A stretch of 64,000 nt of DNA, from the NCBI GenBank assembly GCA_022562395.1, contig JADFPI010000001.1, positions 1,456-65,455 of the forward strand. The letters run 5' to 3'. The position numbers were made by a program, and so were the translations under genes. Under the pieces are notes generated by a model that saw nothing but the letters and a program-made list of their open reading frames with translations, was not told where the DNA came from and searched no databases. The stretch comes from Patescibacteria group bacterium. GTDB lineage: Bacteria; Patescibacteriota; Microgenomatia; UBA8517. Shown in pieces: positions 3,825 through 62,567 of the stretch (position 1 is the stretch's first letter; every line of letters starts with the position of its first letter).

Positions 3825-3968
3825 CAAATCTTTGCCAACAAAAAATCGGCCAAATCTTTCCCTTCCGGGCTGGACTTGGCACCGTTTTCCTTCGACTTTA
3901 CTCAGGACCGGTTGCCGGGTGGGTCATTGAGCCAGTACTCTCGCCACCACTCTTGATTTATTGCCTTA
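3799..3968 (-). promoter_or_regulatory. SAM-I (S-box) riboswitch: aptamer (about 3847-3962) plus terminator expression platform
   Basis: Minus-strand RNA matches the S-box consensus. It has AUCAAGAG, then GGUGGCGAGAG-UACUGGCUC (P2 with k-turn-like GA), AAUGACCCACCCGGCAACC, GGUGCCAAGUCC (P3), CCCGGAAGGG (P4 GGAA tetraloop) and GAAAGAUUUGG (P1 3' strand). It is preceded by a TGGTATAAT promoter and followed by a terminator and SD. No ORF lies inside. Confidence 0.85.
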
Positions 3969-4051: not shown

Positions 4052-5329
4052 TCAGGATTGGTCTGCATAGAACCATTCCCAGGAAGGTTCTTCTACCTCC
4101 TTAATCTTGCTTCGATTCATTTTATAAACCCCATCCTCTAAAACTGTCTGCCAGGTACCTTCATAGTAATGATAATCTACTTCTTCGTCATTCCAGTTTT
4201 TTGTTGAAAATTTAACAAAAGCAGTATCGTCGGTATTTTCGTGGGGCTCGGAAATATAAATCTCAACGTCAAGAATATCGGTGAACCTATTTGTCCACTC
4301 CTCAAAATTCGTTTTTTCAAGGTATTTACTAGATAAAAGCGCAAATCCATCCTCCATCCTCCGTGCCTTTAAATAAGTATAAAAAGCTCTAACCGCCTCT
4401 TCCGGGGAAACCGACGGATCTACTTCGATTTTAGTGATTTCGCTGTCGGTAAATTCAGCCGATAGCCCTTCTATCCAATTGGCAGGAATAAATAAAGATA
4501 AACCCGCCAGACCAAGGGTATTCACTCCTACAACTTTACCGCATATATCCACCAGAGGGCCCCCACTCATTCCTTCAACAAGATTTATATCTGTTTGGAT
4601 ATAAGCGGTGCCGGCCGATTTTTGCTCTCTGAACGAGACGTACTCACCTTTTTGGATAGTTGCTTCACCGGCTAAATCTGTTCCCAAGGCGTAACCGGCA
4701 GCAATAAGCTTTTCTCTGTCGTAAAAAACAAGTGGGTCCATCATCTCAAGGACTAAATCCGGATAGTTTTCTTTCGTAAATAAAATGGCAAGGTCATAAT
4801 ATTGGGTACCGGTAATTGTTTCCGGTGTAGCGAAGCTGCCGTCTGAAAAGATTATTTTCGGACTCGGTTCGCCGGCAATGACGTGGAAGTTGGTAAGAAC
4901 CTGATTCTCGGATATAAAAAAGCCCGACCCTTCGGAGTAGCCGCCGACTATCCTTACTACCGAATCTTTAAGTTTTTGGTCCACCCCGTATCCGCACAAG
5001 AATTTAGAGTAGTGTCCGTAGTTTGTTTGGATGTAGTCAACAATGACAAAGAGCGATGCAAAGATATAGATAACCAGTGCCGTTATAAATATCGACTTCA
5101 GAAAGTTTTTCAAACTTCTAAAAGGAAAGGTTATAGTTTCAAAAAATATTTTTATTAATGAAATTAGGGTTTTTATAAAAAACTTAATAATGTAGTAAGT
5201 TGAGTAAGTGATTGTTTTTACTGGGAAAAGATATAGGGGAAAAAGAAGCCGTTTGACGTAATTTTTGAATCTTAAATAAAGCTCGGAGATTCTTTTCTTA
5301 ACGTTTCGCTTAATCCTACCCACCTTCAT
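4052..5329 (-). CDS. membrane-anchored trypsin-like serine protease (S1C/HtrA-like)
   Basis: N-terminal TM segment. Catalytic triad contexts are TNFHVI (His), YDLAIL (Asp) and GMSGGPLV (Ser). Leaderless with TGCTAAAAT at 5339-5347. Confidence 0.8.
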   Translation of the reverse strand: MKVGRIKRNVKKRISELYLRFKNYVKRLLFPLYLFPVKTITYSTYYIIKFFIKTLISLIKIFFETITFPFRSLKNFLKSIFITALVIYIFASLFVIVDYIQTNYGHYSKFLCGYGVDQKLKDSVVRIVGGYSEGSGFFISENQVLTNFHVIAGEPSPKIIFSDGSFATPETITGTQYYDLAILFTKENYPDLVLEMMDPLVFYDREKLIAAGYALGTDLAGEATIQKGEYVSFREQKSAGTAYIQTDINLVEGMSGGPLVDICGKVVGVNTLGLAGLSLFIPANWIEGLSAEFTDSEITKIEVDPSVSPEEAVRAFYTYLKARRMEDGFALLSSKYLEKTNFEEWTNRFTDILDVEIYISEPHENTDDTAFVKFSTKNWNDEEVDYHYYEGTWQTVLEDGVYKMNRSKIKEVEEPSWEWFYADQS

Positions 5330-7086: not shown

Positions 7087-8850
7087 ATGAAGGCCAAAAA
7101 TTTGAAGAAAAAATACCTTGATTTTTTTAAAAGTCGGGGGCACGCAGTAATTCCTTCGGCCTCTTTGATTCCAGAGAATGATCCTTCTGTTTTGTTCATT
7201 TCGGCAGGGATGCACCCGTTGGTTCCTTATCTTTTGGGCGAGCCGCACCCGGAAGGCAAAAGGCTGACTAATTTTCAGAGGTGTCTAAGAACCGGTGATA
7301 TTGATGAAGTTGGAGACGCTGCACATCATACCTTTTTCGAGATGCTGGGCAATTGGTCTTTGGGTGATTACTGGAAAAAAGAGGCGATTGAGTGGTCTTA
7401 TGAATTTTTGACCAAAGAACTTTCTTTGAGTTCAAAGAGGCTTTGGATTACCTGTTTTGCAGGAGATAAAGATGCGCCTCGCGACACCGAATCAGCCGAG
7501 GTTTGGAAAAGTTTGGGAGTTCCTGACAAAAGAATATTTTTTTATGGGAAGGAGGAGAATTGGTGGGGGCCGGCAGGAGAAACCGGGCCTTGTGGGCCCG
7601 ACACGGAGATGTTTTATGACACCACCGGTAGTCCACATGCAGGAAATTGTAAGCCCGGCGACAAGTGTGGTCGCTTTTTCGAAATTTGGAACGATGTTTT
7701 CATGCAATACAACAAGACTAAAGAAGGAAAGTATGAACCCCTTGAACAGAAAAATGTCGATACCGGAATGGGAGTTGATCGAACGACTGCGGTTTTATCA
7801 GGGCTCGACGACGATTATAAAGTCACCGACCTCTGGGGAAATATTCTTAAGACAATCGAGGAGTCAACGAAGTCAAAATACAAAGGTAACGAGAAAGCTC
7901 ATCGAGTAATTGCCGACCATGTTCGAGCGGCCACTTTTGTGATTCAAGACGGCGTGGTGCCTTCAAACAAAGAGCGCGGTTATGTTTTAAGAAGACTAAT
8001 AAGAAGGGCGATTCGATACGGACGGATTTTGGGTGTTGATAAACCATTTCTGACAGAAATTTCAAAGTCAGTTATTAAATCTTACCAAGACCAATATCCG
8101 GAACTTGAGGAAAAATCAGGCCAAATAAAAGAGGTGTTGGATGACGAGGAAAATAAGTTTTTCCACACCCTTGCCAAGGGTTTGCGCGAAATCGAAAAAC
8201 TGGGAGAATTGGACGGGAAAAAGGCATTTTTTCTTTACGAAACATTTGGATTTCCCTTGGAGCTTACCGAAGAGATTGCCAGGGACAAGGGGCAAAAAAT
8301 TGATATAGAGGAGTTTGAGGGGCAGTTTGAAAAACATAAAAAGAAATCTCGTAGTGCTTCTGCCGGGATGTTTAAAGGGGGGCTTGCCGATCATTCAAAG
8401 GAGGTAATTAGGCTTCATACTGCAACCCACCTTCTTCATTGGGCCCTGCGGGAAGTCTTAGGCAAAAGTGTTCACCAAGAAGGGAGTAATATTACCAAAG
8501 AGAGGTTAAGATTTGATTTTTCGCACCAACAAAAATTAACTGAAAGTGAAATTAAAAAGGTCGAGAAATTAATTAACGAAAAAATAAAAGAAGATTTACC
8601 CGTTCACAAAAGCGTTGAGGAAAAAGAAAAGGCGTTAAAGTCCGGCGCGCTGGCAAATTTTGCCGAAACTTATCCGGAAAAAGTTTCAGTTTACACCATA
8701 GGGAAAGATTTAAAGAAGAACTGGGTTAGCAAGGAGGTGTGCGGCGGGCCGCACGTAAAGACTACTTCCGAAATTGGGCGTGTTAGAATTAAAAAACAAG
8801 AAAAAATAGGAACGGACCTGATAAGAATATACGCGATTATTGAGAGCTAA
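7087..8850 (+). CDS. alaS: alanyl-tRNA synthetase, short form (catalytic + tRNA-binding + editing core; no C-Ala domain)
   Basis: N-terminal FFKSRGHAVIPSASLIPENDPSVLFISAGMHP class-II AlaRS motifs. Editing motifs HTATHLLHWAL and CGGPHV. The product is only about 588 aa. Confidence 0.85.
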   Translation: MKAKNLKKKYLDFFKSRGHAVIPSASLIPENDPSVLFISAGMHPLVPYLLGEPHPEGKRLTNFQRCLRTGDIDEVGDAAHHTFFEMLGNWSLGDYWKKEAIEWSYEFLTKELSLSSKRLWITCFAGDKDAPRDTESAEVWKSLGVPDKRIFFYGKEENWWGPAGETGPCGPDTEMFYDTTGSPHAGNCKPGDKCGRFFEIWNDVFMQYNKTKEGKYEPLEQKNVDTGMGVDRTTAVLSGLDDDYKVTDLWGNILKTIEESTKSKYKGNEKAHRVIADHVRAATFVIQDGVVPSNKERGYVLRRLIRRAIRYGRILGVDKPFLTEISKSVIKSYQDQYPELEEKSGQIKEVLDDEENKFFHTLAKGLREIEKLGELDGKKAFFLYETFGFPLELTEEIARDKGQKIDIEEFEGQFEKHKKKSRSASAGMFKGGLADHSKEVIRLHTATHLLHWALREVLGKSVHQEGSNITKERLRFDFSHQQKLTESEIKKVEKLINEKIKEDLPVHKSVEEKEKALKSGALANFAETYPEKVSVYTIGKDLKKNWVSKEVCGGPHVKTTSEIGRVRIKKQEKIGTDLIRIYAIIES

Positions 8851-12567: not shown

Positions 12568-13608
12568 ATGAAGAAATTTCCCTTTTTCGTTTTTCTGCTA
12601 ATCATTGTTGCGGTTCTTGTAGGGGTTTTAGGTGCGAGTTGGTGGAAGACCAACATAAAGGCTCCGTCACGCGAAGCTTCAATTGAGAGATTTGTTATTC
12701 CCAAAGGCTATTCTGCTTCCCAAATAGGAAATAGATTGTTTGAGCAGGGATTTATTAAAAATTCTCTGGCTTTCAAGTTTTATGTACAAGTCACCGGAAA
12801 AGCGGAAAAAATTCAAGCAGGTGAATTCACCCTGAGCCAGAACTTTTCATTGATTGAGGTGGTCGAAAGATTAACGGGCGGACCGGAGGAACTTTGGATT
12901 ACAATTCCGGAAGGGTTACGGCGAGAGGAGGTAGTCGAAAGAGTGATAGAAAGCCTGGAATTGGAGCCAGGAAAAGCCACCGTTTTTCGTAAGGAGTTTT
13001 TGGCTGAAACGGATGGTAAAGAGGGATTTTTATTTCCAGATACTTATCTGTTCCCCGGGGACATTGTGGCAAGTGTCGTTGTAGAAAAACTTGAAAGAAC
13101 TCTAGACAATAAAATTAGCGAATTTGCGGGTGCGATCTCTTCAAGCGGATATTCTGAAAAGGAGATTATTACCCTTGCGTCGATTATTGAGAGAGAAACT
13201 AAGACTGATAAAGAAAGGCCGGTTGTTGCCGGAATACTTTTTAATAGGCTTAAAATAGGGATGGCATTGCAAGTAGATGCCACGGTTCAATACGCGGTTG
13301 CAAATGTCAAATGTCAAATGTCCCCGGCCTCGCCAAGCGAAGCGGGGCGGGTAAATGTTAAATGTGGTGACTGGTGGCCGACATTGACGAAACAAGATTT
13401 GAAGATAGATTCACCTTACAATTCGTACAAATTTACCGGCTTACCTCCCGCTCCAATTGCCAATCCCGGAGTTTCTTCAATTCGCGCCGTTATATTCCCT
13501 GAAGATAGTGATTATTTGTATTATATCCACGATTCCGGGGGCAACATTCATTATGCGAAAACGCTAGAAGAACATAATGAGAATGTAAGAAGATATTTGG
13601 GTAAGTAG
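12568..13608 (+). CDS. mltG: endolytic murein transglycosylase MltG/YceG-like
   Basis: N-terminal TM, FVIPKGYSASQIGNRLFEQGFI, LASIIERETK and YNSYKFTGLPPAPIANPG motifs. Contains an in-frame (caaatgt)x3 microrepeat at 13298-13320. Confidence 0.8.
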   Translation: MKKFPFFVFLLIIVAVLVGVLGASWWKTNIKAPSREASIERFVIPKGYSASQIGNRLFEQGFIKNSLAFKFYVQVTGKAEKIQAGEFTLSQNFSLIEVVERLTGGPEELWITIPEGLRREEVVERVIESLELEPGKATVFRKEFLAETDGKEGFLFPDTYLFPGDIVASVVVEKLERTLDNKISEFAGAISSSGYSEKEIITLASIIERETKTDKERPVVAGILFNRLKIGMALQVDATVQYAVANVKCQMSPASPSEAGRVNVKCGDWWPTLTKQDLKIDSPYNSYKFTGLPPAPIANPGVSSIRAVIFPEDSDYLYYIHDSGGNIHYAKTLEEHNENVRRYLGK

Positions 13609-13675: not shown

Positions 13676-13698
13676 CCCCCGTTTAACGGGGGAATTTT
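13676..13698 (+). promoter_or_regulatory. rpoB leader hairpin CCCCCG-tttaa-CGGGGG + AATTTT (attenuator-like)
   Basis: 6-bp GC stem followed by a U-rich tract, in the 5' UTR. A second hairpin GCGTAC-gcaacg-GTACGC lies at 13654-13671. Confidence 0.5.
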
Positions 13699-40466: not shown

Positions 40467-40497
40467 TTCCCCGCCCAAATATGGAAATTTTTGGCGG
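40467..40497 (+). promoter_or_regulatory. Hairpin CCCCGCC-(17 nt)-GGCGGGG immediately upstream of the rpoA SD
   Basis: 7-bp GC stem. Confidence 0.35.
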
Positions 40498-40517
40498 GGC
40501 GCGGGGAGGTGAATTAT

Positions 40518-41896: not shown

Positions 41897-41925
41897 TTCA
41901 ACTTAGACTAAACTCTATTTATAAT
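41897..41925 (+). promoter_or_regulatory. Promoter TTCAAC-N17-TATAAT for rplM-rpsI
   Basis: -35 at 41897-41902 and -10 at 41920-41925. Confidence 0.45.
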
Positions 41926-42045
41926 CGTTGGCAGAACACCCCGATTTAATCGGGGCTGAATGCCAAAAACGATTACAAAATTCCGAGGCAGAATTTAAAA
42001 AAAATTAGCAATGAGCCCGCCAACTCATGTAAACTTGAAAAAATA

Positions 42046-42066
42046 CCGAGGGCTAAAAGCCCTCGG
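42046..42066 (+). promoter_or_regulatory. Hairpin CCGAGGGC-taaaa-GCCCTCGG 6 nt upstream of the rplM ATG
   Basis: 8-bp GC stem, sitting where the SD would be. Confidence 0.45.
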
Positions 42067-42072
42067 AAGTTT

Positions 42073-58473: not shown

Positions 58474-58612
58474 TAATTAAGAATATCACGACCATAATTT
58501 TTACTGCGATGATTGTCGAAGAAAAGCAGTAAGGTGAGTGGAGAAAAGTAGCGTTTAGCTTGGGGAAATTCTATCTTCATAAGTTTTACTCGGCTCTGAA
58601 AGAAAGAGTAGC

Positions 58613-60421
58613 TTAGATTTTCCCCAGGTTCTTTGCGAGGGCGTTTGTTTCCTTGAGAAGAGTTTCAACTTCGGCGATGCCCTTTTCCCAGAAGTCTTTT
58701 TTTGAAATATCGATGCCAAGCTTTTTGAAACTGTCCTTAGGGGATTCGGACAGCCCCACCGAAAGGAATTCTTTTACAGCACCTATAAATTTGGAATCTT
58801 TTTTGACTTCGGCTTGCATGGTTTTTGAGATTAGTAGGCCTCCGGCATAGGAGTAAACGTAGAAGAAAAAGCGAATATGTTGCCAGTGTACCCACCAGTT
58901 TTCAGAGCCAGGGGATTGCAGCACGTAAGGGCCCATGTACGAATCCATATGTTTCTGAAACGTTTTGCCGATTTCTTCCTTGCTTAGATAACCCCTCTCT
59001 CGAAAAGTTTTATGCAACTCGGTTTCAAAGTTATAAAGGGCGATCTGCCTAAAGATTGTTTTTACGTCTTCGTCGAGTTTATTGACCATTAAAGCAAGCC
59101 TGGTTTCCTTGTCAGCCCTTTTTAACAATTCTTGAAATACAAAGTCTTCCATAAATGTACTCGCAACTTCTGCCGTTGACCTGGGTGTGCCAAAATTGAG
59201 CGCGTTTTGTTTTCTGCGAATGAGCTCAAAGTTTATTCCGTGTCCGAGTTCGTGTGCAAAAGTTAGAACGTCTTTGAGCATGTTTGTCCAATTGAGAAGT
59301 AAAAAGGTCGGCTGGGACAAGAGTGTGTAGGCTGTAAAAGCTCCACTACGCTTTCCACTTCTAGGGTAAACGTCGACTCTGCCCTCATTTACAAAGTCTG
59401 AGAAGAGATTGCTGAAATCTTTATCTAGGTTTTTGTATACGCTTTCAATTATTGAAACGGCGTCTTTATAAGAATATTTCGCTTCGATTTTGCCGTATTC
59501 AACGAGCCTTTCGTGATACTCCAACTTTTTAACTCCTAGAAGTTTTGCTTTGAGCTTGTAATGATGCATTGCTACGTCAAAGTGTGAAGATACAGAGCTC
59601 ACTAGTGTGTCGACAGTGTCGGTGTCGACGTCGTCTGAAATGTGGCGATCAGTATCTGCTCTTTCGTAATTACGCAATCCGTCGTCTATTTTTTTGTTTT
59701 GCAGTACGGCGTTTAACTCATGCTCTGCTGTATCGGTATGACTTGCTAAAATGTCGTTGAATGCATTAGCGGCAGAATTCCGAACTCTTTTGTTCCTAGA
59801 ACCCATTAACCCCAGGATGTCAGAGAAACTCTTCTTGTCCTTTCTCCTTTTTTCATTTAATATCATCCTTTCTTCCTTAGACAAAAATCCAGAAGTCATT
59901 TTTGTCCAGTTGTCGTGAGCCACGGGGGATTTTAGATTCATTATTTTTTCTTCTGGCTCGGTGAGTAGGTGTTTCGCCTGCAAAAACAGTCTCTCCAAAA
60001 AGTGTTTATAGGGCATTAGTGGTTTGTAGTTTAAAAACTGGCTTTGTTGACGGGGATCGATCTTCGCAAGCCTTAACTCGAAAAATTGAATTTGATTTTG
60101 CATTTTTTTAACAAATTCTATTGATTTATTGTATTTGGCTTTGAGTTTTGGAGCGTTTTGGTCTTGTGAGGTTTTTAGCGAGTAATAGTAGTGTTCGCCG
60201 CCTTTGGGATCAAAATTTTTTCTCCAATCTTCGTATTCGCTTAGCGCTGCAAGTAATACTTTTGGTTTTTTAAGGTAATCGTCTCTGTTCTTCCACTTCT
60301 TTACAAACTGGCTAGTTTTCTTCTCGGTTATCTTTCTGAGTTTTTGGATTTCTGTGTCATTCTCTGATTTGAATAAAAGAGTTAGGTCCCAGGAGGTTCT
60401 ATTAGCTTTTAGTTTTGCCAT
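58613..60421 (-). CDS. pepF: oligoendopeptidase F (M3B family)
   Basis: HELGHGINFE HExxH zinc site and an overall M3B layout. Confidence 0.85.
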   Translation of the reverse strand: MAKLKANRTSWDLTLLFKSENDTEIQKLRKITEKKTSQFVKKWKNRDDYLKKPKVLLAALSEYEDWRKNFDPKGGEHYYYSLKTSQDQNAPKLKAKYNKSIEFVKKMQNQIQFFELRLAKIDPRQQSQFLNYKPLMPYKHFLERLFLQAKHLLTEPEEKIMNLKSPVAHDNWTKMTSGFLSKEERMILNEKRRKDKKSFSDILGLMGSRNKRVRNSAANAFNDILASHTDTAEHELNAVLQNKKIDDGLRNYERADTDRHISDDVDTDTVDTLVSSVSSHFDVAMHHYKLKAKLLGVKKLEYHERLVEYGKIEAKYSYKDAVSIIESVYKNLDKDFSNLFSDFVNEGRVDVYPRSGKRSGAFTAYTLLSQPTFLLLNWTNMLKDVLTFAHELGHGINFELIRRKQNALNFGTPRSTAEVASTFMEDFVFQELLKRADKETRLALMVNKLDEDVKTIFRQIALYNFETELHKTFRERGYLSKEEIGKTFQKHMDSYMGPYVLQSPGSENWWVHWQHIRFFFYVYSYAGGLLISKTMQAEVKKDSKFIGAVKEFLSVGLSESPKDSFKKLGIDISKKDFWEKGIAEVETLLKETNALAKNLGKI

Positions 60422-60708
60422 GTAGGGATTTTAACATAAAAAGAGCCCGGTAGAAGACATCTCTCCAGACAGTTATAAGTTTTCATAGATCTATTTACAT
60501 TCAACTCTACACGCGCGATCGCCTACAAATAGTTGAGGCTATTTGAGAGAAAGAAATTATTTTTATTGGGAGAACCGTATTTATCAATTTCTTGAAGTGC
60601 AACCTTTTCAGCTTTTTAAGCAACCTCTTTATATCTTTTAACTTCAAATATTGTCGTGAATGTCCGAAAGTACTGTAACCTTCATGCTAAAGTCTATTAT
60701 GCCGAAAC

Positions 60709-60736
60709 TTGACAATCTTTATCAGAACATTATAAT
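60709..60736 (+). promoter_or_regulatory. Consensus promoter TTGACA-N16-TATAAT for the relB/yafQ-like pair (leaderless; ATG 9 nt after the -10)
   Basis: -35 at 60709-60714 and -10 at 60731-60736. Confidence 0.65.
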
Positions 60737-60745
60737 TATATTGCT

Positions 60746-61033
60746 ATGCAGAAGGTGATTGTACAGGTTCCAATGACTAAAAAATTAAGAGACGCCGCAA
60801 CTCGCGCTGCGAAAGATTCAGGTTTCTCGTCTTTACAGGAAGTAATTCGTTTGTTTACCACCAAGCTTGCCAAGAAGCAGGTTTCGATTGATATTTCTGG
60901 AGTGGAATATTTGACTCCCCAGGAAGATGCTATTTTGGAAAAGAGGTATAAAGAATTTCTAGCCGAGAAGAAGAAGGGTAAAACTTATAAAGCAACCTCT
61001 GCCAAGGAGATGATAAGGCAACTGACTTCTTAA
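60746..61033 (+). CDS. RelB/DinJ-like antitoxin (putative)
   Basis: 95-aa basic protein immediately upstream of a RelE/YafQ-family toxin; assigned by gene context. Confidence 0.5.
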   Translation: MQKVIVQVPMTKKLRDAATRAAKDSGFSSLQEVIRLFTTKLAKKQVSIDISGVEYLTPQEDAILEKRYKEFLAEKKKGKTYKATSAKEMIRQLTS

Positions 61034-61036
61034 TAG

Positions 61037-61312
61037 ATGGCCACAATCGAATACGACAGGAGGTTTAAGAAGCACTTCAAAACAAGAATTTTTCTCAATA
61101 GAAAACTTGCAAAAAGATATGAAGAACGACTGGATTTATTTTTGAAAGATAGACGTAATTCCATATTAAATGACCATAAGCTTGTTGGGAGGCTAGAAGG
61201 CACGAAAGCTTTTAATATTACCGGGGATATTAGAGTTATTTATGTCGAAGCATGAGACACAAGCTATGCTTATGTCGAAGTAGACAAGAACCACTTTATT
61301 TTTCTAGATATC
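61037..61312 (+). pseudogene. RelE/YafQ-family toxin interrupted by an in-frame 30-bp tandem duplication carrying a TGA stop (track ORF 61037..61255)
   Basis: HKLVGRLEGTKAFNITGDIRVIYVEA then stop. Removing 61251-61280 restores ...VIYVEVDKNHFIFLDIGTHPQIYGM, the expected RelE/YafQ C-terminus. The duplicated ttatgtcgaag is visible at 61240-61250 and 61270-61280. Confidence 0.6.
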
Positions 61313-61396
61313 GGCACCCATCCTCAAATTTATGGTATGTAGCTAGGGGGGAATTTCGCTTCAATTTAAACACAGGGTTTGGTAAAATACAACAAG

Positions 61397-61467
61397 CGGG
61401 GAGTAGTTTAGTGGTAGAATGTGCGCATGGGGTGCGTGCGGCCCGAGTTCGATTCTCGGCTCCCCGA
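61397..61467 (+). tRNA. tRNA-Pro (anticodon GGG)
   Basis: Manual fold gives acceptor CGGGGAG/CTCCCCG, anticodon loop AT-GGG-GT with U33 and G37, T-arm CCGAG-TTCGATT-CTCGG, discriminator A and no encoded CCA. The D-stem is weak (GU pairs). Confidence 0.65.
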
Positions 61468-61489
61468 CACTATAGGATTTTGATATTCC

Positions 61490-61773
61490 AGTTGTTGACT
61501 TAGGGTTATCTTTGATGACAATAATGATTTCACTTTGTAAATTTGCTACTGAATTAATTCAGTAGTTAAGACAACTGCATCAAGCCGAATTCCCCCCGCC
61601 AGCAACTGCGTAGCTTTGAGCGGGGGGCGGGTGAGGCGTAGTCTCCGATAAAATCGGGGTAGCAATGCGGCGTCTAGAAGCCTCTCGGCAAAGCCGAGTT
61701 AATCCTTCAGGATATTGAAGAAGTCCCGAGCCTCTGTGCTCGGGGAGGCTTCACTTCAGTAGTTAAAATGGCC
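61490..61773 (+). repeat. Degenerate third AbrB-like cassette on the plus strand: promoter, palindrome (61545-61564), a ~190-bp hairpin-rich insert (61565-61754), then ttcagtagttaaaATGGCCAGCCCCGACTAA (5-codon remnant)
   Basis: Matches the 5' leader and first codons of copies 1 and 2. The ttcagtagttaa on each side of the insert looks like a 12-bp duplication. Confidence 0.6.
61565..61754. mobile_element. ~190-bp hairpin-rich insertion (MITE-like or structured ncRNA candidate)
   Basis: Stems CCCCCCGC/GCGGGGGG, CCGAT-aaa-ATCGG, CTCGGC-aaa-GCCGAG, CTTCA-ggatat-TGAAG and CCCGAGC-ctctgt-GCTCGGG. Flanked by a ttcagtagttaa direct repeat. No ORF. Confidence 0.4.
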
Positions 61774-61781
61774 AGCCCCGA

Positions 61782-62423
61782 CTAAATTATCTTGTGCTCA
61801 ACTAAGAAATCTCTGACAATCTCAAAAATTTTCTTATGACCTTCAGTGTTTGGATGTATACCGTCAAAAAGTAATGTGTCTACTTTTGCTTGAGACGTTT
61901 TCCTTAAATTAACATAGTCTAAATTTTTCTCATTACAGACAGATTTAATTATATTATTAAACTCAGAGATTGATGTGTTTTTGTAAGATAATTCTTTGTC
62001 CCATGGCACGGGATTAACCCTTTTTTCATCGACACGAGTTAATCCCAGAAAAATTATTACATTTGTAAACTTTTTTGCAAGTGAAACAAGTTTAATTAGA
62101 TTTTTTTGAAATTCATTCGGTGTAAATCTTGCATTACCGCCGGGGTATTTTACAGCAGAATCGTTTGTTCCTAGTTGGAAGATAATTATCAGCTTTCCTC
62201 CCTCCCAGGCCCGAGGTTTGGTCTCAACCTCAAAGTGCTCTAATAATGTTTCAGCTGTCTCGCCGGCTACACCAAGGTTATAAACCGTAAAAGTTTCCTT
62301 AAGCCACCAGTTTTGCCTGGTATACTTTTTGTCTACAAAGTTTCTTAATTTATTGACCCATCCGCTTTCTTTGTCCCAGCGACCGTAAGCAACACTGTCT
62401 CCAAAAACCAGGATATTCGCCAT
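61782..62423 (-). CDS. SGNH/GDSL-family hydrolase
   Basis: VFGDS (block I Ser), GTND and DGIHPN (block V Asp-His). Confidence 0.75.
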   Translation of the reverse strand: MANILVFGDSVAYGRWDKESGWVNKLRNFVDKKYTRQNWWLKETFTVYNLGVAGETAETLLEHFEVETKPRAWEGGKLIIIFQLGTNDSAVKYPGGNARFTPNEFQKNLIKLVSLAKKFTNVIIFLGLTRVDEKRVNPVPWDKELSYKNTSISEFNNIIKSVCNEKNLDYVNLRKTSQAKVDTLLFDGIHPNTEGHKKIFEIVRDFLVEHKII

Positions 62424-62567
62424 GAAGAAATTTTACCACAACCTTGAGCGAAATTGAGGTTATTAAAAGCTTCAAGAATACCCCGATTCAGTCGGGGATG
62501 AATTGAAGCTGTAACAATATCTTCCTTTACGACGAAGACGTACAGCTTTGCTGTAGAGGGGAAGATG

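Follow-up and report, generated by a model that had tools for sequence, protein, structure and literature searches.

A 185-bp hairpin block in a decayed AbrB-like leader of a Patescibacteria bacterium: a candidate modular hairpin repeat

Introduction

The closest described counterparts of the element studied here, a 185-bp GC-rich hairpin block that we call E1, are small intergenic repeats and insertions. BOX elements of Streptococcus pneumoniae are generally known as short, non-coding, intergenic sequences built from hairpin modules (boxA-boxB-boxC) that are reused in varying number and order with no transposase attached. REP/BIME and ERIC sequences of enterobacteria are palindromes that are GC-rich relative to their spacer and lie within or after operons, and REP RNA hairpins shield upstream mRNA from 3' exonucleases and pause transcription. 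Miniature inverted-repeat transposable elements (MITEs) of the IS630/Tc1-mariner type, such as RUP and Correia-like elements, are non-autonomous insertions of 100-200 bp with filled and empty sites. E1 lies in a 64,000-nucleotide stretch, hereafter the window, from an uncultured Patescibacteria group bacterium (GenBank assembly GCA_022562395.1, contig JADFPI010000001.1, positions 1,456 to 65,455), where it occupies the leader of a decayed AbrB-like gene downstream of tRNA-Pro; two intact AbrB-like cassettes, copies 1 and 2, lie near the other end of the window. On balance we favour the reading that E1 belongs to a lineage-specific set of modular hairpin repeats, similar in kind to BOX, REP, ERIC and MITE sequences, and that it is probably ordinary junk-like DNA and not a new RNA gene.

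The likeness to BOX lies in the modules: E1 consists of H1, H2 and D3, the related elements E2 and E3 consist of M1, M2 and H1-type hairpins, and the elements are probably co-transcribed with their neighbours. The E1 family differs from BOX in apparently lacking BOX sequence similarity, in the few copies seen as opposed to about a hundred, in the uniqueness of D3 and in belonging to another phylum. It differs from REP and ERIC in that E1 is composed of five different hairpins, as against one 35-bp unit or a single long palindrome of 127 bp, and no RAYT gene is in view. E2 resembles the MITEs in having TA at each junction and ends that form a weak inverted repeat (TAAAC.../...CGATTA), whereas E1 has neither terminal inverted repeats nor a TA duplication, the 12-mer that flanks it is native, and no parent insertion sequence was found. 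The host cassette resembles autoregulated genes of the AbrB/MazE/SpoVT type, in which a palindrome and direct repeats separate the promoter from the start codon of a gene for a small swapped-hairpin-type DNA-binding protein, an arrangement classic for autorepression. It departs from them in that the protein is 65-80% identical across Patescibacteria classes, unlike typical antitoxins, in that a neighbour that might be toxin-like (NYN) is found beside copy 2 alone, and in that the putative operator lies in the transcribed leader. A full-text literature search returned nothing on MITEs or AbrB in Patescibacteria.

Results

E1 interrupts an AbrB-like leader between two native units

In the intact cassettes of the window the leader runs from a TGCTAAAAT promoter through a spacer of approximately 19 nt to the palindrome GCTACTGAATT|AATTCAGTAGT, followed by one or two further 12-bp units (AATTCAGTAGTT) and AAAATGGCC, and the intact leaders of related species, traced via AbrB-like homologues at 90-94% identity, read GCTACTGAATT AATTCAGTAGTT AATTCAGTAGTT AAAATGGCC. 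The corresponding features of the third locus are as follows.

61495-61500 and 61517-61525, + strand: promoter-like site, putatively that of the decayed cassette, with 9/12 matches in a consensus scan (-35 TTGACT and -10 GACAAT/AATAAT)
61545-61566, unstranded: 22-bp palindrome GCTACTGAATT|AATTCAGTAGT, presumed operator of the AbrB-like protein (three window copies against zero expected)
61558-61569, + strand: first 12-bp unit TTCAGTAGTTAA, overlapping the right arm of the palindrome
61570-61754, unstranded: E1, the 185-bp GC-rich hairpin block between the two operator units, delimited by composition, fold and leader reconstruction
61755-61766, + strand: second 12-bp unit TTCAGTAGTTAA, which could pair with 61546-61553 and so close the whole block in RNA
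61768-61785, + strand: AbrB-like start remnant, ATGGCCAG (61768-61775, preceded by AA and identical to copies 1 and 2) and then unrelated sequence, giving five codons and a stop

When 61570-61754 is removed, the joined sequence TTGCTACTGAATTAATTCAGTAGTTAATTCAGTAGTTAAAATGGCCAG is identical at 48/48 positions to the intact leader of the related-species loci L085/L086. E1 is thus an insertion relative to intact AbrB-like leaders, as the earlier note had proposed in describing a leader interrupted by a hairpin-rich block; its estimate of about 190 bp is corrected to 185 bp. Exact 12-bp TTCAGTAGTTAA repeats abut E1 on both sides, which the same note had offered as a possible target-site duplication. 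The repeat itself stands and that reading of it is not supported. Tandem AATTCAGTAGTT units are native to intact leaders, being present in window copy 1, in L085/L086 and in L084, and because of the 48/48 match we regard the two units as native tandem operator repeats. No duplication is therefore needed, and the 12-bp repeat is no evidence for transposition. An explanation of the repeat by native units was among the outcomes that the note had named as speaking against its view. With one mismatch or fewer the 12-mer has eight matches in the window against 0.41 expected, all but one of them within the three leaders. A one-unit leader also occurs, in copy 2, where the palindrome is followed directly by AAAATGG, so that a 12-bp duplication on insertion is conceivable, if improbable.

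The palindrome is present at 61545-61566, 564-585 and 1981-2002. The third locus has in common with the leaders of copies 1 and 2 an exact stretch of 27 nt (palindrome plus unit) and another of 20-21 nt (TTCAGTAGTTAAAATGGCCAG), and similarity ends at 61775. It is a decayed AbrB-like cassette that retains the operator and the first 8 nt of the coding sequence (CDS) and has lost the rest of the CDS, in agreement with the earlier proposal of a degenerate third copy. The remnant open reading frame (ORF), ATGGCCAGCCCCGACTAA at 61768-61785, overlaps the stop codon (61782-61784) of the convergent SGNH-hydrolase gene. That the locus also carries the promoter of copies 1 and 2 was not borne out: measured from the palindrome, the promoter-like site lies where TGCTAAAAT does in the intact cassettes, but only about 14 of 26 nt upstream of the palindrome are identical (TGACAATAAT against TGCTAAAAT).

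Two modules of E1 recur in other hairpin elements

E1 has a GC content of 58%, compared with 43% for the window, and folds with a minimum free energy (MFE) of -80 kcal/mol on the + strand and -77 kcal/mol on the - strand (z = -4.1 and -4.4, respectively), with zero shuffles folding as well. Its five stems, of 8, 7, 6, 7 and 8 bp, are perfect, as in young palindromic repeats. The predicted + strand fold comprises a three-way domain (H1 and H2), a four-way junction (D3) and an optional 9-bp closing stem in which the left half of the palindrome pairs with the distal 12-bp unit. The modules, and the two hairpin elements of the window with which E1 is compared below, are as follows.

61584-61637, unstranded: module H1, with outer stem GCC/GGC, an internal loop, the 8-bp stem CCCCCCGC/GCGGGGGG (61592-61599/61620-61627) and the 20-nt loop CAGCAACTGCGTAGCTTTGA
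61643-61659, unstranded: module H2, CTCCGAT-AAA-ATCGGGG (CTCCGATAAAATCGGGG)
61677-61752, unstranded: domain D3, predicted to form a four-way junction that GAAGCCTC/GAGGCTTC closes and that bears three hairpins (CTCGGC/GCCGAG; TCC/GGA or, alternatively, CTTCAG/TTGAAG; CCCGAGC/GCTCGGG)
41916-42072, unstranded: E3, a hairpin element of approximately 160-190 bp filling the 183-nt rplQ-rplM spacer, recognized by its likeness to E2
62470-62566, unstranded: two-hairpin insertion of approximately 97 nt between the NUDIX stop codon and the SGNH promoter, absent from L089

A covariance model of E1, built on its MFE fold and run over approximately 0.56 Mb of related loci, found only the H1 hairpin, once, in L089, a close relative at 85-90% nucleotide identity that was reached via NUDIX homologues. 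The match, CCCCGC-TAGCAAATGCGTAGTTTTGG-GCGGGG at L089 1853-1884 (16.5 bits, E 0.028 over 89 kb, model R1), is identical to H1 at 28/32 positions and in the loop at 15/20, and the layout of outer stem and internal loop is alike. It lies inside E2, a 194-bp hairpin-rich insertion (L089 1708-1901) between ABC_tran and HU; the E2 site is filled in L089 and empty in the window species, and TA stands at each junction. Over 150 nt, E2 shares 77% identity with window positions 41922-42054 in E3, and the genes that E3 separates, rplQ (L17) and rplM (L13), abut without a spacer in the relative L090. At the position of H1, E3 carries CCCCGATTTAATCGGGG (41939-41955), which, read on the - strand, is identical to H2 at 16/19 positions. 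H2 also resembles the hairpin CCCCGATTCAGTCGGGG at 62481-62497, a further example of the type, which has an outer stem and a GAAYA/NUGAA internal loop. This last hairpin belongs to the insertion at 62470-62566, roughly 700 bp from E1, which has GTTATT at both junctions and a single GTTATT in L089. At least three hairpin-element insertions thus separate these close relatives, and E1 has two modules in common with them.

H1 and H2 are homologous to hairpins of elements with filled and empty sites and, judged from their sequences, hairpin modules of this kind are reused at several unrelated intergenic sites. Hairpins of the form CCCCG...CGGGG occur at six window sites, at least four of which are in spacers (41939, 61594, 62481 and 13677 upstream of rpoB). 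The single-sequence MFE folds of the middle module M2 differ between E2 and E3, which suggests that there is no structural constraint there and speaks against a conserved RNA structure; no Rfam family is matched by the hairpin elements related to E1.

Some further details of these elements may be recorded. E2 and E3 have weakly inverted ends (TATAATCGTTGG... / ...CGGAAGTTTATA). E3 runs right up to the start codon of rplM and provides a GGAAG 5 nt before it. The CCCCG...CGGGG hairpins outside these elements are at 13322-13347, among tandem AAATGTC repeats; at 13677-13691, just 5' of rpoB, as CCCCCGTTTAACGGGGG followed by AATTTT; and at 40469-40499, spanning the predicted TTG start of rpoA (40491), with the 5' arm and loop in the spacer.

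Evidence weighing against the repeat-set reading

Several observations limit the strength of this interpretation. No second full-length E1 was found by BLAST in the 64-kb window or in approximately 0.67 Mb of related loci. D3, which makes up 40% of E1, had no counterpart in the covariance-model search. E1 has neither the TAAAC.../...CGATTA ends seen in E2 and E3 nor terminal inverted repeats: by eye, GACAACTGCATC... matches the reverse complement of ...GGAGGCTTCAC at 3/8 of the first positions, and an inverted-repeat search joins no ends. The whole E1 locus is missing from the nearest relative, L089, leaving no orthologous empty site; a promoter-like site lies directly upstream of the block; and the near-invariance of E1 in 11 other contigs also fits purifying selection, the flanking SGNH gene being equally invariant. 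The uniqueness of E1 as a whole in the DNA searched, the lack of a relative for D3 and the unlikeness of the ends of E1 to those of E2 and E3 are the reasons why we hold the repeat-set reading to be only somewhat more probable than not. The earlier suggestion of a MITE-like element is accordingly supported in part: two modules, H1 and H2, do recur in elements with filled and empty sites, but the whole element is unique and lacks terminal inverted repeats.

Strain variation and a species-specific block

E1 is present in 11 further contigs from three studies, namely ten same-species ENA contigs and L095 from another study, with at most three small differences. The variants comprise a G-run of altered length that leaves the H1 stem intact, the loss of one base in a single contig, C>T at 61637, which converts a predicted G-C pair to G.U on the + strand and loses the pair on the - strand, and 61658 G>T in L095, which breaks a U.G pair. 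Twelve copies with three differences or fewer offer too little variation for covariation analysis. E1 with the leader differs from L095 by 0.42% and is no better conserved than SGNH (0.47%), whereas NUDIX differs by 2.6%, a contrast suggestive of a recent acquisition or a sweep.

The surrounding gene order differs between species. The window reads TauE, pepF, antitoxin, yafQ, inverted tRNA-Pro, the relic leader with E1, SGNH, NUDIX and recA, whereas L089 reads TauE, tRNA-Pro, NUDIX2, NUDIX and recA and is without the palindrome, E1, SGNH, the toxin-antitoxin pair and pepF. From this comparison we take the block at 58490-62567 to be recent and species-specific. The block adds approximately 4 kb relative to L089 and L090, both of which have TauE, tRNA-Pro and NUDIX here, and SGNH stands in place of the second NUDIX gene. 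The nearest homologues of SGNH are at most 49% identical and occur in DPANN archaeal contexts without a tRNA or an element. In the same block, the yafQ toxin gene carries a 30-bp insertion (61246-61275) flanked by an 11-bp direct repeat, TTATGTCGAAG, which leads to a premature stop (72 aa); an intact 91-aa yafQ is present in strain contigs L001-L004, L008 and others, and several assemblies break at the insertion.

The tRNA-Pro gene and promoters of the region

Upstream of the relic leader lie the following features.

61380-61388, + strand: extended -10 promoter TGGTAAAAT of tRNA-Pro, 8 nt 5' of the mature end, with its function proposed from sequence
61397-61468, + strand: tRNA-Pro(GGG), called by ARAGORN and by Rfam (RF00005, 54.3 bits)

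The two programs thus agree with the earlier identification of tRNA-Pro(GGG) at 61397. The gene is 97% identical to its L089 counterpart, and its orientation is reversed relative to NUDIX and recA. The possibility that the tRNA directed the integration, raised in the same note, found no support. Its 3' end is not repeated in the window, where tRNA 11-mers occur elsewhere only at 8745, 49258 and 50643; these are distant sites on the opposite strand, and there is therefore no attL/attR-like repeat. A tRNA-targeting integrative element was rejected on this ground and on the absence of an integrase nearby. A GTDB scan with the 26-mer of the tRNA 3' end gave 29 loci, in which the true relatives L015, L028 and L039 have neither palindrome nor element downstream; nothing similar follows the tRNA in L089 either. 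In L015 and L039 tRNA-Pro adjoins recA.

The TGnTAAAAT promoter type of tRNA-Pro is also found in front of both intact AbrB-like copies and of the NYN and SGNH genes; the relic promoter of the third locus is without this form, which the working promoters have. TGnTAAAAT (or TATACT) promoters lie 6-10 nt 5' of ATG in NYN, SGNH and ABC_tran; the sites are at 1690-1720, 62424-62450 and 61380-61396 in the window and at 1640-1665 in L089. Promoters so near to the ATG, or to the 5' end of tRNA-Pro, imply leaderless or nearly leaderless transcripts.

The AbrB-like protein and its palindrome

The two intact cassettes, each encoding 67 aa, are as follows.

332-535 (CDS), 332-625 with leader, - strand: AbrB-like copy 1, with the TGCTAAAAT promoter, the palindrome and two further tandem units
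1773-1976 (CDS), 1773-2040 with leader, - strand: AbrB-like copy 2, followed by an NYN-domain gene at 1157-1690

Against Pfam PF04014 (MazE/AbrB/SpoVT) the proteins score 22.8-23.8 bits (E 4e-5 to 9e-5) for a cutoff of 24.7; many homologues bear a precomputed PF04014 assignment and an NCBI family name, and a 35-sequence profile gave weak matches. The AlphaFold (AF2) model has a predicted local distance difference test score (pLDDT) of 66, and its best Foldseek matches, AbrB-N, MazE and SpoVT, are weak (E 0.4-1.5). An exact-protein look-up found no record of the copy 1 sequence. At E<=1e-5 the protein has 595 homologues, typically 65-80% identical across Jorgensenbacteria, Falkowbacteria, Woesebacteria and other Patescibacteria, so that by sequence comparison it appears far more conserved than an ordinary antitoxin. 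In related species its gene has varied neighbours (MOSC, a LexA-like S24 peptidase, FtsK, NYN).

The 20-nt core of the palindrome, CTACTGAATTAATTCAGTAG, is found exactly in 40 metagenome contigs (loci L044-L083) from many habitats. It extends to TTG...CAA in 16 of the 40, and in 19 of the 40 the hairpin is followed, on one or both strands, by four or more T in a row. The core lies directly 5' of AbrB-like genes in 5 of the 40 contigs. In L047, L058 and L078 it separates convergent tRNA genes and has a T-run on either side; it is next to a tRNA in L066 and L083, 5' of a tRNA promoter in L056, and within the 16S-tRNA-Ile spacer in L059. One possibility is that the palindrome serves as operator for a regulator present throughout the phylum and having a wider regulon; another is that it is a conserved terminator acting in both directions.

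In the unrelated contigs L046 (3415-3600), L050 (4148-4400) and L064 (left of 1268) a common structured-looking sequence adjoins the palindrome. It reads CATGCCTGCCCCGTATA, a variable-length insert, then TATCGGGGT(T/A)TTTAT.TA.TA(C/T)GG.ACAG, has no Rfam match at gathering thresholds, and could represent an RNA not yet annotated, one arm of which varies.

Searches for known families

Against Rfam only the tRNA passes the gathering thresholds, and no family reaches its threshold within E1, the check that had been proposed for the element; under a permissive E<=10 the best match inside E1 is CRISPR-DR29 to the last hairpin, at 19 bits against 39. A scan of JGI metagenomes with a pattern of the D3 loops and junction had zero matches, as had scans of viral contigs with two E1 patterns, the leader/start junction, the E1/E2 H1 consensus and the palindrome-free end shared by E2 and E3. 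BLAST of E1 against plasmid and phage collections gave only chance matches of 25-30 nt. The covariance model found nothing like E1 at the SGNH homologue loci in their DPANN archaeal contexts. Elsewhere in the window, at 3849-3962 on the - strand, there is a SAM riboswitch (RF00162), which scores 48.9 bits where 44.4 are required; it is situated downstream of a 425-aa ORF on the same strand (4052-5329).

Discussion

Alternative explanations

The main rival to a repeat-set origin makes E1 a free-standing structured small RNA (sRNA) of approximately 190-230 nt. Its transcription on the + strand would start at the relic AbrB-type promoter and would be repressed in trans by the AbrB-like paralogues, acting at the operator units on either side; pairing of 61546-61553 with 61755-61762 would close the RNA. 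The TTGACT/GACAAT site approximately 45 nt upstream and the operator sequences on both sides of the block fit such a gene, and a 236-nt transcript folds to -93 kcal/mol (z = -5.1) with the 9-bp closing stem. The GC island also resembles that of the neighbouring tRNA, the C>T variant at 61637 keeps its pair as G.U on the + strand and not on the - strand, and in metagenome loci the palindrome adjoins tRNA genes, an rRNA-tRNA spacer and other structured-looking sequence. However, the - strand folds as well as the + strand, and the second of the two substitutions observed, 61658 G>T in L095, disrupts a pair. Neither an Rfam family nor, in the 0.56 Mb of related DNA, a covariance-model homologue was found, and the closest relative does not have the locus. 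The TGnTAAAAT form is gone from the relic promoter, a scan of either strand at E1 found no intrinsic terminator, and transcription would enter SGNH antisense. H1 and H2, moreover, are common to elements in unrelated spacers. We consider an sRNA gene unlikely on this evidence. In a broader version, E1 would be a structured RNA specific to the lineage, its expression would be gated by an AbrB-family regulator found across Patescibacteria, and the palindrome of that regulator would also mark stable-RNA loci. This strikes us as a long shot; if true, it would make E1 one member of a stable-RNA regulon under a conserved small protein in reduced genomes.

E1 could also be a true transposon-derived MITE that duplicated the 12-bp target TTCAGTAGTTAA on entering a one-unit leader. 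The exact direct repeats that abut the insert, the one-unit leader of copy 2 and the junction repeats of the related insertions (TA for E2, GTTATT for 62470/62566) are what such an event would leave. Two-unit leaders are native, though, and with the reconstructed site matching at 48/48 positions the duplication is unnecessary; E1 lacks terminal inverted repeats, has no transposase nearby and no known second copy, and junction repeats of 2, 6 and 12 bp are incompatible with one transposase. We therefore give this explanation little credence.

Quite improbable, too, is that E1 is the - strand 3' untranslated region (3' UTR) or end structure of the NUDIX-SGNH transcript, which arrived with a horizontally acquired SGNH gene and has the palindrome as its final terminator hairpin. 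E1 does begin 27 nt past the SGNH stop codon on the - strand, the nearest SGNH homologues (at most 49% identical) are in DPANN archaea, and divergence from L095 is 0.4-0.7% across SGNH, the spacer and E1 but 2.6% in NUDIX; elsewhere, the palindrome lies between convergent tRNA genes with T-runs in the manner of a two-way terminator. Yet no T-run follows any hairpin on the - strand, E1 sits within AbrB-leader sequence and not within SGNH-linked sequence, and the SGNH homologue loci carry nothing similar.

Other candidates were rejected outright: a retron msr-msd RNA (8-9-nt inverted flanks are present, but no reverse transcriptase gene lies within 10 kb on either side), an IS200/IS605 derivative such as a PATE or a TnpB guide RNA (first and last hairpins unrelated, no TnpB-size ORF near the locus, no HEARO match), a tRNA-like or transfer-messenger RNA (ARAGORN and Rfam negative), a riboswitch or ribozyme (Rfam negative), a solitary CRISPR repeat (19 bits against the threshold of 39), a small peptide gene (longest ORFs in the block 17 and 39 aa) and a DNA-uptake sequence (motif confined to the AbrB leaders within the 64 kb).

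A possible history of the locus

If E1 does belong to the modular repeat set, it would have come by the same insertion process as the related hairpin elements and would have landed exactly between two native tandem 12-bp operator units of a leader of the AbrB/MazE family. The AbrB-like gene would later have been truncated after its third codon by a rearrangement that brought the SGNH-hydrolase gene alongside. E1 would then have no sequence-specific RNA function, and any effect would probably be physical and passive, arising from stable hairpins in transcripts of both strands: on the + strand through read-through from the strong tRNA-Pro promoter or from the relic promoter, and on the - strand in the 3' UTR of SGNH. 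By analogy with REP and BOX elements, from which we infer a comparable protective or pausing effect, such hairpins could pause transcription or block 3' exonucleases between the convergent units.

Implications

Should this account be right, its value would be mainly as an aid to annotation: GC-rich, strongly folding islands in AT-rich Patescibacteria may be small hairpin repeats prone to insertion and not RNA genes, and direct repeats on either side of an insert can stem from a native operator instead of being a scar of transposition. It also places on record three or four filled and empty sites of small hairpin repeats in a phylum for which few small repeats have been described. The recurrence of the highly conserved AbrB-like protein and its equally conserved palindrome near tRNA and rRNA genes in many metagenomes possibly matters more than the insert, and could be a hint that these minimal bacteria use a simple global regulator or a simple terminator signal.

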